In this document: one piece after another, positions 20,585 through 45,066 of the stretch
Layout: the number at the start of each line of letters is the position of its first letter
Position numbering within the stretch: position 1 is the stretch's first letter
NCBI GenBank assembly: GCA_964016885.1
Contig: OZ024745.1
Location: forward strand, 14,322,001 to 14,386,000
Direction: 5' to 3'
Length of the DNA stretch: 64,000 nucleotides
Source of the DNA: Eledone cirrhosa
Taxonomy: Eukaryota
Made by a program: the position numbers and the translations under genes
The notes under the pieces: generated by a model
What the model was told of the DNA's origin: nothing
The model's database searches: none
What the model saw: only the letters and a program-made list of their open reading frames with translations

Positions 20585-20666
20585 ATCTATCTATCTATCT
20601 ATCTATCTATCTATCTATCTATCTATCTATCTATCTATCTATCTATCTATCTATCTGTCTATCTCT
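20585..20666. repeat. (TCTA)n microsatellite just upstream of Tx1 copy B
   Basis: About 20 ATCT units. Confidence 0.97.
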
Positions 20667-20903
20667 CCATAATCTAGCTGTTGTCTGTTCTACAGCGTAG
20701 ATGTAATTCACTTCGCGCAGAAGTTTTGTTCAAATTTATTGCGGAAATTTTGTAAGTTCAATTTTAATTTTGATACTATTGTGTAGCTTGACCCCCCGTC
20801 TGAACTATCAGGCGGTGGGTCAGCTCATCTTTACCCCTCCTAGGGGTGAAAAACCTGTTTTTAAAAATTTTGTGGCATAAAAAATTTCAATCGTCTGACA
20901 GGA

Positions 20904-22807
20904 ATGTTAAACGAAGCTAACGAAAATAGTGGTGGGGGGACAGCGGTAAGAGTTGTAAGCTCGCACGCTTTAGTCCCCCCTTCCTTCCCAACTAACGTCA
21001 TAGAGAAGGAAAGAAAAAATAAAATAAAAACAGAAGAATCTGCGGAGAAAAATGACGAAAACACAAATCTAGACATGGATTCCAACAACGAAAAAAAAAA
21101 ATTTGAAAAATTGCATGACAATATTAATACCACAAACAAAGACACGACAAACACAAAAATAACATTTGAAAACAACATCATAACAGAAAGCAAAGCAGAC
21201 GACAAAGTCAACACCAATAATATTTCGTTTGCACAAACAACAAAGAAATCTTTGACATATATACCTGAAAATATTTCAGATGTGGCACAAAGAATTGCAG
21301 ACGCCAAACAATACATAACTGAAGGAGAAAATGGTATTTTATCGGTAAAAATGCCTCAAGAACTCACCAAAGACATTGAAAGTCAAACGGTCGTTTTCCG
21401 CACCATCAACAACATTTCTAAAAAACCTGAACAGCCAACTCAAACAGAAATCAAAACAGTACTTACAGAAGTACTTAATGAAACCACTTTCATAAGAAAA
21501 GACAGACTGTATGGAAGCCTAGCGATTATTATGAAGAACGAATCGGCGGCAAAAAAATGTGCTTTGTCACCGATTCGTTCGAAATTTTTTACCTTTTATC
21601 CATCTTATATGGGTAAAAGAACTCAACGCATATGGCTGGATGCAATGATGCCAGATGTGGACTACTGCTGGCTCATAGCTGGCTTCATCGATCCAGCGAA
21701 TGACAACGTGATTTCCATTGGGAAAACCACAGGCAATGCGTTCAGTGGAACAGGTATAGAGCTTGTAGTGCAAATGAAGCCTGAACGCATCGACCAAATA
21801 CCCGACAGAATCCTATTAGAGGGCCACGGGTATATAAACATTAGCGTGGAGGGGAGAAGGCCGTCCTGTCATATCTGTACAGGCAGAGGGCACCTGAAGG
21901 CGGCTTGTCCCCAACTCAACAAAAAGAAAACCCTGCTACCAACACCAGCTCCACCACCACAACAGATAAACAAACAACAAAACTCAGTCCCACCCAACCC
22001 GTCTCTCAGTAAAACTACACCACCACCACAACACAAACAGTCACAACACATTACCCCAAAACAAAATACAGGCCCACCCAACCCCTCACTCAATAAAACA
22101 ACACAACCACCGCAGCCACAACACACAACACAGTCTAACATAGTGACATCCATCTCCCCCACAAAGAAAACCAACACGGAAACATTACCAGCAAACATAC
22201 CTCTTCCCTCCAACACTGAAGATAACCCAACGAATTCGGAGGAAGAAACGGAGTCCTTCAGACAGATTAATAGGAAAAAAAGAAAACATGTGCAAAACAC
22301 ACAAGGCCAAACAACCCCCACCCAAATGTCAACACAATCCAACAAAACACAAAACACCCCTCCAGCAACAAACAAAACAAACCTGCCCCTCCCCTCTTCG
22401 AAACACTCACACCATCCGAAAAAAAGACATTACACTATACTTACATCAACAGAAACAATAATAAATTAAATGAATTCATAAACAATAATCCTTCGGTACA
22501 AACCGAAGGTGTAAACTTTGTTTCTTCAGAAAACTACCCACATTTAAAATTAATAAAGATCCCAATGAACCTCTACCAAAAACTAAAAAAGGATTTTAAG
22601 GAGGACGTAGGACCACCCTCTGTCAAACCCATAAACCGCGTCCTACTAAAAAGCTTTCCCCCTCCCCTTCCCCTCCCCAACACAACTCCAAACACCCCAA
22701 CCCCACCACACACTGACGACCCCACACCACCACAAGACACCCCTTCACCCAACACCCCCGACCCCATGGAAGTCGTGCAACCCGAACCCCGGGAAGCAGA
22801 AAGGTAG
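20904..22807 (+). pseudogene. ORF1 (gag-like nucleic-acid-binding protein) of copy B; interrupted at 22467
   Basis: 521-aa ORF with CHICTGRGHLKAAC (CX2CX4HX4C) and a P/T/Q-rich tail. The C-terminal piece 22565-22807 is homologous to copy C 28448-28759. Confidence 0.88.
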
Positions 22808-43000: not shown

Positions 43001-44952
43001 AACCTGGTAGGGAAAGCGCAAATCCCGACCAGGTCCATACACAACAACCTCCACCTCATGCGATACATCATAGAGAGGGTGGGTAGTAAACCCGGCTTCA
43101 GTGGGGCTCTGATCAATTTGGATCAGTCTAAGGCATTAGATAGAGTCGACCATCGATACTTGGAAGCGGTTCTCAAAGCGGCCGGTTTCGGTCCCGTTTT
43201 CAGAGGTTGGATCGAGGCGATGCACACCAGCATCTGCTCGAGGTTCAAGGTGAACGGCTACCTATCGGAGCCGTTCGCAATTACGCGTTCCATTCGACAG
43301 GGGTGCCCTCTCTCCTCCATTCTGTATGTATTGACACTAGAGCAACTACTGCGGAAATTGGAGCTGTTGCAGGGCATTCCTCTAGAACCGGAACTGCTCA
43401 AAGAGGCGTCGGCTTATGCAGACGACGTGACGGTAATGGTGTCGAGCACCTCCGAAATCGGGGTGATCGGCAACTTACTGAAAGAATACGAAACGCTGAC
43501 GGGAGCAAAACTAAACCCGGACAAGTCTGTCGGTTTGCAACTCGGTACGTGGAGAGGCAAACCGATGAGGTCCGACAGCGTCGTTGGACGCTGGACGGAC
43601 GGACCGGTGAAATTGCTCGGGGTCTGGTTCGGTCCAGACCTCCAGGTGGAGAAAAACTGGAACGAGGTCACGGCCAATGTGTTTGTGCTCACCCAGAAGT
43701 GGGCAGAGTGCAAACTGTCCTTGAAAGATCGAGCAGAAGTGGCGAACACTTTCATAGCGTCCGTCATCTACTACCGCTCGACAGTCGTGCCTTGTCCCCG
43801 TGAACACCTCGCCAAGATGGAACACATGCTCTTCCAGTTTCTGTGGAAGAAGCAGGCTCCGCTGGTGAGGAGATCCGTCTGCTGTCATCACCCTTCCAAC
43901 GGATCGCTTGGAATGCCGTGGCTGATGATGAGCAAACATGCGCTGAGGCTGCGGCATCTCCAGGTATTCCTCACCGACCCCCAACCGGTGTGGGCACCGT
44001 TTGTGAGACAGGCTTTTCCCCAGCTCGTCTCGCCGACGGAGCTGCAGGCCTGGGACAAGAAAAGACCGAATGCGATGGGAGCCTGGTACATTGAATGCGA
44101 CAAGGGCGACGACGTGCTCGGAGAGACTCTGGGCGTCGAAGACGATGAGCTCACCAGTCTGTTTGGTAGGACTTTCCGCCCGGGACCTATGGACAACTTC
44201 CAGAGGTCCCTGGCCTGGCAGTGCTTCCGAGGAGCTCTACAGGTTCGTGACAAGATCTACAGGCACGGACGCCCCGGCAGGGATCCTTCCAAGAGGGCGT
44301 GTCCAAGATGCGCGCAGGGCATTGAAACAGTCCTGCACGCAATTGTACACTGCTGGGGCGTAACCGACCTGTGGAATTATGCAGAACAACTGCTGTCGCG
44401 TATGGGACAATCCAGTTGACTGCCGAGTCCATAGTAAGGATCAAACGGCCAGCCTCTTTCAAAAACGAAAGAGAGGCGGTTTTCCTCTGTACAGTGGCTA
44501 TGGTGAAAGAAGTTATTTGGTGGACGAGATTGAGAGGACTGACGACAGATGCCTTTCTCTCCGGACAACAATTGATTCCCTTCTTTAAGTACCACTTTAG
44601 ACGGAGAACCAGAGTGGAGAGAGTGGCACTGCACCCCAGTAAATTTACTGAAAGGTGGGTGAATGAAGCGAAAATGGCCCGAGTGATTGGGCCTTCTCTG
44701 TTTATAAGCCTGTAGGTTAAAAAAAAAAGAGAGCAAAAGGAAGAAAGGAGCACTTGCACAACACGCTCCTGGAGTTGAGGGTTGTTCTATCGACGGGGTA
44801 TTAAACAATCCATTTGTGGCGCTTCCCCCCTATTGGGGATTTCGATTGTTGTAATTGTTTGTTTTATATTTTTTACACGACTGTATGTAAAATCCCCGGC
44901 ATATCTTGGTATTGTCCTCTCTTCTTGTGCGCCCTTGTGGCAAATAAAGAAA
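40085..44952 (+). mobile_element. Tx1/L1-clade copy D; an internal deletion fuses ORF1 to the ORF2 endonuclease
   Basis: ORF1 from 40289 (CFRCGSTAHLKASC) reads in frame into GMDVIAITESR at about 41506; RT ORF 42782-44419 with YADD; ORF2 stop at 44713-44715; 3'UTR nearly identical to copy A. Confidence 0.94.
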
Positions 44953-45066
44953 TCTATCTATCTATCTATCTATCTATCTATCTATCTATCTATCTATCTA
45001 TCTATCTATCTATCTATCTATCTATCTATCTATCTATCTATCTATCTATCTATCTATCTATCTATC
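44953..45066. repeat. (TCTA)n microsatellite directly 3' of Tx1 copy D
   Basis: About 28 units immediately after AATAAAGAAA. Confidence 0.97.

Follow-up and report, generated by a model that had tools for sequence, protein, structure and literature searches.

Does a retrotransposon lineage choose (TCTA)n microsatellites as its insertion target, or do the TCTA repeats at the ends of its copies belong to the element itself? The question is raised by 64,000 nucleotides of Eledone cirrhosa DNA (NCBI GenBank assembly GCA_964016885.1, contig OZ024745.1, positions 14,322,001 to 14,386,000 of the forward strand; hereafter the window), which are repeat-rich animal DNA. Comparing the window with itself we found four Tx1-type LINE (long interspersed nuclear element) copies, A to D, with two open reading frames (ORF1 and ORF2), all decayed and all on the plus strand. 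Each of them carries lesions (stops, frameshifts or deletions) and all are dead today. We give a probability of about two in three to the reading that an octopod Tx1-type LINE lineage inserts preferentially into existing (TCTA)n arrays in one orientation, by endonuclease-led priming assisted by annealing. That the targeting as such is real, be it led by the endonuclease or by annealing, we regard as highly probable.

All four copies close with AATAAAGAAA (at 8754, 26474, 31745 and 44943); TCTA-type units come next and poly(A) is absent, as the initial annotation had described. The same motif occurs nine times in the window on both strands, and the remaining five occurrences have no TCTA units behind them. 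Directly after GAAA comes TATA, TATA, GATA or TCTA and then TCTA, which is the same register in all four copies, and the TATA-TCTA start of the tail is identical in A and B, themselves just 73% identical. The annotated single orientation relative to the repeat (4/4 copies), the arrays on both sides of D and the array in front of B were likewise recovered (Table 1). Perfect AGAT-class arrays of at least 16 bp are found four times in the window, each time at an element junction, whereas 27 further microsatellite loci with di-, tri- or tetranucleotide units that lie outside the elements all sit away from junctions. (AT)n accounts for 13 of these 27 loci and 3.2 kb of perfect repeat without any Tx1 junction, the closest non-TCTA locus being a (CA)n tract about 43 bp past the tail of C; three further AAC loci all lie within ORF1s. 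Two (AG)n loci and one (AAG)n locus are also away from junctions, and the (TC)n and (TTC)n association of Kibi and Koshi proper is thus absent from the window. The 44,988 background bases hold no TCTA-type tract of at least 16 bp and one perfect 12-bp (AGAT)3 at 55916 on the opposite strand. Taken together, four of four against none of 27 and the clean background argue against both chance (~3e-7 as an approximate bound if two 5′ junctions are taken as independent) and a general liking for simple repeats. All three full-length copies have the target repeat on both sides and one orientation, with a duplication inside the repeat legible in B and C; the truncated copy A does not show this combination.

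B and C are flanked by duplications inside the array, which argues that the array was target DNA. The two copies of the B duplication are identical (Table 1), and for C the positions 20640-20660 equal 31757-31777 (21 bp with one departure from the pure repeat); both duplications start 2 nt past GAAA. We liken them to the long fixed duplication of ~23 bp known from Tx1L. The degenerate edge of one array is found three times, left of B, at the B/C boundary and, in altered form, right of C, as expected from two successive insertions. Judging from the sequence, C probably inserted first, with its 5′ junction then serving as the site for B, because the array edge left of B matches the middle one exactly but departs from the one on the right, and C is the more decayed of the two (one ORF2 alignment segment in B vs five in C as a measure of preservation). 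The array at 20585 is best explained as the target locus of both C and B, and the proposal of the initial annotation that the elements insert into their own tails is not supported at the B/C boundary, which is best read as B entering the 5′ junction of C. It is unlikely that the string shared by B and C represents a conserved 5′ end of the element, since the two copies diverge straight after it and D does not have it; the 5′ untranslated region (UTR) of D is closer to that of C (73%) than to that of B (61%).

Integration would follow target-primed reverse transcription into a (TCTA)n array. The APE endonuclease would nick the (TAGA)n strand, at an exact position that is blurred by microhomology, and the second strand would be cut about 20 nt downstream. 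The AATAAA signal is located only ~6 nt upstream of the array, and the typical distance from signal to cleavage would put RNA cleavage downstream of AATAAA inside the array. The RNA would be cleaved and polyadenylated within the downstream repeat, with UCUA units preceding the poly(A), and the nicked TAGA end would anneal to these units. The poly(A) would never be copied, because priming would start upstream of it, and as the target is kept on both sides of each insertion later copies could stack. A further possibility, which we consider doubtful, is that (TCTA)n/(GATA)n is targeted through a self-renewing loop by an old, so far undescribed lineage of cephalopod Tx1 elements. In this loop insertion would set the target behind the poly(A) signal, the RNA would carry a primer site complementary to the target and poly(A) would be bypassed.

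Of the specificity, annealing between RNA and DNA could give a part or even most. In the alternative that survives best, although it is unlikely, the targeting is real and set mainly by this pairing: the endonuclease would be relaxed and nick at many sites, only nicks that pair with UCUA would be extended and the tail would be renewed from the target. The fixed register of all four copies is consistent with this, and so are the tail start common to A and B and the site of A with its one TCTA unit. For the internal priming of SART1Bm an annealing-guided mechanism, with short target-like RNA on the nicked strand, has also been proposed (PMC7265360). On the other hand, the 20- and 21-bp duplications in the same register leave no space for RNA-derived units and suggest fixed cuts, and in TRAS1, SART1, R1Bm and Tx1L it is the APE endonuclease itself that nicks the bottom strand and holds the specificity (PMC1919474).

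Improbable in our view is that TCTA is encoded by the element, so that the 3′ tail seeds microsatellites, the 5′ units come from an array-bearing or array-started transcript and insertion is untargeted. This would account for copy A, whose TCTA is limited to the 3′ end, and for the TCTG unit that recurs at each of the three 5′ junctions, and other LINE clades do end in short repeats (TAA in I, TGTAA in UnaL2; PMC3747384). The initial annotation had named TCTA confined to 3′ ends as the observation that would speak against targeting, but TCTA is present at 5′ junctions as well and these arrays are not leftover tails. At E<0.3, profiles of the 3′ UTR match the four copies and no other sequence; the absence of any hit in front of the arrays at 20585 and 39974 rules out hidden upstream copies as the source of the 5′ arrays. 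In the self-comparison the flank before the 5′ array of B has no relation to the one before that of D, and the outer edges of the arrays are compound and decayed, resembling old genomic microsatellites. Had the arrays been carried by RNA, duplications would be expected to enclose them from outside and none longer than 6 bp was seen; the threefold recurrence of the degenerate edge also speaks against an encoded repeat. Very improbable is a passive origin, by survival or recombination of copies in microsatellite-rich DNA (e.g. between tail and array) or by assembly errors at the junctions, because in spite of the repeat-dense window, a Penelope element between (AT)n arrays and the sequence exchange between C and D, the far commoner (AT)n and (AC)n loci are without any Tx1 junction, the flanks are unique and the duplications are consistent with stepwise insertion.

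Several points weigh against endonuclease-led insertion into existing (TCTA)n arrays, which we nevertheless prefer. The sample consists of three full-length insertions at two loci in one 64-kb window, and the copies are not fully independent (A and D are 92% identical, the block shared by C and D 96%). The duplications are low in non-repeat information (two departures in B, one in C), microhomology blurs their true lengths (~11-20 bp in B, up to 21 bp in C) and that of D is unreadable within the pure array. The TCTG unit mentioned above might represent a conserved start of the element. No significant fold was obtained at any of the four 3′ ends, where a conserved 3′-UTR stem-loop was looked for (z +0.4 to -1.8). 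Finally, A has no 5′ array and its 5′ flank equals its 3′ flank over 5 bp only; truncated copies of this kind are the best test of targeting.

Table 1. Positions of the LINE copies, their arrays, duplications and further features in the window.
Feature	Position	Strand	Remarks
Copy A	6351..8765	+	5′-truncated; ~0.5 kb internal deletion near 6922; subfamily of D
Copy A tail	8764-8776		single TCTA unit; 5′ array absent
(ATCT)18 array	20585..20667	+	end also given as 20664; degenerate 3′ edge, TCCA-type units at 5′ edge
B duplication, left copy	20648..20667	+	20 bp, two departures from pure repeat
Copy B	20668..26485	+	full length, best preserved; carries stops and frameshifts
5′-UTR double hairpin, B (predicted)	20781..20850	+	~40-60 nt upstream of ORF1
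Copy B ORF1	from ~20904	+	RRM-RRM-CCHC
Copy B ORF2	~22841-26277	+	APE endonuclease, reverse transcriptase, C-terminal zinc finger
B duplication, right copy	26486..26505	+	identical to left copy; also 5′ junction of C
Copy C	26499..31756	+	both ends full-length; 5′ end 26499 or 26506; numerous lesions
5′-UTR double hairpin, C (predicted)	26590..26659	+	~40-60 nt upstream of ORF1
C/D block, probably converted	27911..29388	+	89-100% identical to D; D counterpart 41369-42073
C 3′ tract	31757..31790	+	array 31757-31785; degenerate edge after 31777
(TCTA)27 array 5′ of D	39974..40084	+	flank unrelated to that of B
Copy D	40085..44952	+	both ends full-length; frameshifted
5′-UTR double hairpin, D (predicted)	40171..40239	+	~40-60 nt upstream of ORF1
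(TCTA)28 array 3′ of D	44953..45066	+	array start also given as 44952

Membership of A to D in the Tx1 clade, as initially annotated, is likely from the anatomy of their predicted proteins. ORF2 showed Pfam matches to Exo_endo_phos, RVT_1 and zf-RVT, the last of them below the curated cut-off, and with an N-terminal APE endonuclease, a reverse transcriptase (RT) and a C-terminal zinc finger it has the arrangement of the L1 group (L1/Tx1). Among PDB sequences its best match was L1 ORF2p (E ~2e-21), with R2 at 5e-12 or weaker; the partial endonuclease of copy C gave two PDB matches, both at chance level. For ORF2 of B the best named protein match is from Argonauta hians (62% identity). Pfam had no match in ORF1 of B, and among 12 relatives of ORF1 it found no RRM and a CCHC match in six. 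The predicted structure of ORF1 comprises two RRM-like domains and a CCHC (model pLDDT 90), and Foldseek ranked tandem-RRM proteins at the top. The model of domain 1 matches VIA (Z 9.8, root-mean-square deviation 2.3, 81 aligned) and the best rows for domain 2 are ribosomal and ACT-like folds with Z 8.0 or less. Atlas placed ORF1 with CCHC and ZCCHC3-type clusters at 0.90-0.92, and ORF1 of B, C and D contains one CCHC knuckle each. An ORF1 of Type I, with RRM plus CCHC knuckle and not Transposase_22, is described for Tx1 (PMC5203782); ORF1 of the window elements is of this type, which is not exclusive to Tx1.

The RT reached ~158-169 bits with five fish proteins that bear automatic TX1- or pol-like names, and human L1 reached ~79 bits with the whole ORF as query, matching the same stretch. 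RT trees were calculated from 46 and 28 rows chosen by hand from 240 and ~350 proteins, unrooted and without L1 outgroup or Repbase references. In these trees B, D, the Argonauta hians protein and two others form a (starred) clade that is sister to a clade with Acanthosepion pharaonis, and in the 28-row tree the window elements are located outside the fish TX1/pol-like group. The endonuclease hairpin loop has 10 residues in B, C and D vs mostly 12 in the sister proteins (61 of 120 parsed), a length that tells nothing about the target. A predicted protein of Branchiostoma belcheri (P0135) contains two RT domains, which suggests tandem Tx1-like copies in the lancelet as well. A protein scan of GTDB gave 48 pattern matches and no relatives, and a scan of GTDB for the 3′-end motif gave 10 loci that are similar in the motif only and have no TCTA array next to it (one has a single unit); we treated them as chance.

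With aligned identities of 92% (A/D), 79% (C/D), 68% (B/D) and 65% (B/C), A and D make up one subfamily, and going by these values the TCTA association spans deep splits between subfamilies 65-68% identical. The initial view of B, C and D as distinct old subfamilies holds for these splits and needs correction for C and D, which are not fully independent. Between the two, 526 of 546 endonuclease positions are identical vs 810 of 942 in the RT (Fisher p 2e-11), the mosaic block being 96% identical, and relative to B they have a 10-bp frameshifting deletion and a 3-bp deletion in common. As an inactivating lesion is shared, the block probably arose by gene conversion between neighbouring dead copies, or else from a common defective master for this block, so that for the endonuclease the two copies make up a single sample. 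Copy C has in addition lost ~0.65 kb 3′ of the endonuclease, and in D a deletion of ~785 bp at 41504 joins ORF1 to the endonuclease region.

Upstream of ORF1 the three full-length copies have a predicted double hairpin with fold z values of -7.4 (B), -3.1 (C) and -4.6 (D) in hand-chosen windows. In a control with 80-nt tiles the hairpin tile ranks 1/72 in B, 1/65 in C and 5/60 in D; the hand-picked windows rank lower (1, 7 and 2 tiles fall below them, respectively). Folding of the antisense strand is about as good, and the double hairpin may act as DNA or as RNA. Changes on both sides were seen in 4 of 22 pairs (14/500 shuffles), from three sequences and a structure derived from the same three. 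Rfam returned 96 microsatellite-driven matches for the whole window and eight and one weak matches for the 5′ UTRs of D and B, none at gathering score. A ribozyme of the HDV-like (hepatitis delta virus) or hammerhead type was unsupported when known motifs were checked by eye. In the 5′ UTRs of C (~26527-26593) and D (~40108-40173) a segment of ~66 nt, GTAAG…TTTTGTAG, looks like a short intron, and B is without an aligned donor. The array just upstream of D (39974-40084) contains 27 WGATAR (GATA-factor) motifs on the minus strand; it is speculative that the target array of D doubles as promoter or enhancer.

Other repeats are abundant in the window. An apparently young Penelope-like element (47146-50922) lies between two (AT)n arrays and has an unbroken ORF of 727 amino acids (48131-50314) without Pfam match, in which we take two motifs to be YRDD and GIY-YIG-like; its terminal repeats differ in the length of (ATT)n and by a short insert and are otherwise 100% identical. 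A 34-bp satellite with ~119 copies (11529-15925) is found inside a ~2.2 kb tandem duplication (99% identical), and a 2.4-kb element (51167-53596), bounded by inverted repeats of 241 nt that are 92% identical, has in its interior a 180-bp tandem pair and inverted A-rich/T-rich tracts. A SINE-like (short interspersed nuclear element) family of ~200 bp is present in many copies on both strands (e.g. 16031-16234, 32703-32890, 51472-51682, 54341-54561 and 58046-58274), in which ARAGORN detected no tRNA. The window also includes a 4-kb (TA)n tract (34699-38706) with an assembly gap of 200 N (36464-36663) and a C-terminal LINE fragment (9387-9887), presumably RTE-like, with a DUF6451 match below the cut-off.

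In the Tx1 clade, target-specific insertion is a frequent trait (PMC4640811). Microsatellite targets on record are TC, TTC and TTCC/TTTC repeats (PMC4494074), and other Tx1 targets named in the literature covered, which included PMC5753468 and PMC11203168, are U2, U5, 5S, satellites and transposons. A TCTA/GATA target for Tx1 did not appear in the literature searched, which was mostly open-access with Repbase and Dfam outside it, so that this absence is weak evidence; Fig. 3 or the supplements of PMC4494074 may list a GATA-type target. TCTA is probably a new target for the known microsatellite-targeting type of Tx1, adding to a known kind of system and not a new kind. The fish Tx1 elements Kibi, (TC)n, and Koshi, (TTC)n, are likewise APE-type LINEs in a microsatellite that is pyrimidine-rich on the sense strand (PMC3812793, PMC4494074), from which the window elements differ by their TCTA target and cephalopod host. 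Crocodilian Tx1 families share the preference for a tetranucleotide, (TTCC)n or (TTTC)n, and are set apart by their description, with another unit and host (PMC4494074). Tx1L of Xenopus has a specific APE endonuclease (PMC1919474), but its target is the transposon Tx1D and not a microsatellite. Orientation-specific insertion into simple repeats is also seen in the R1 clade with SART1/TRAS1, Waldo, (ACAY)n, and Mino, (AC)n (PMC3812793, PMC7265360); this is a different clade, and SART1 copies end in poly(A).

For octopus, 13 recently active L1-Tx1 families with 421 insertions have been reported (PMC13282606; see also PMC8967140), and they probably include the lineage described here. The passages on octopus L1-Tx1 in both papers mention no target preference, and the word ‘target’ occurs 0 times in PMC13282606. 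Few microsatellite targets are on record for APE-type LINEs, and a review from 2013 described the mechanism as not well understood (PMC3812793). A TCTA family without poly(A) offers a direct test of the shares that the endonuclease and RNA–DNA pairing have in the specificity. If the targeting is true, Tx1 microsatellite targeting reaches the cephalopods and GATA markers of octopus may carry LINE flanks. If the self-renewing loop is true as well, the element would split and multiply TCTA arrays, and many GATA microsatellites of octopus would be tied to a LINE.

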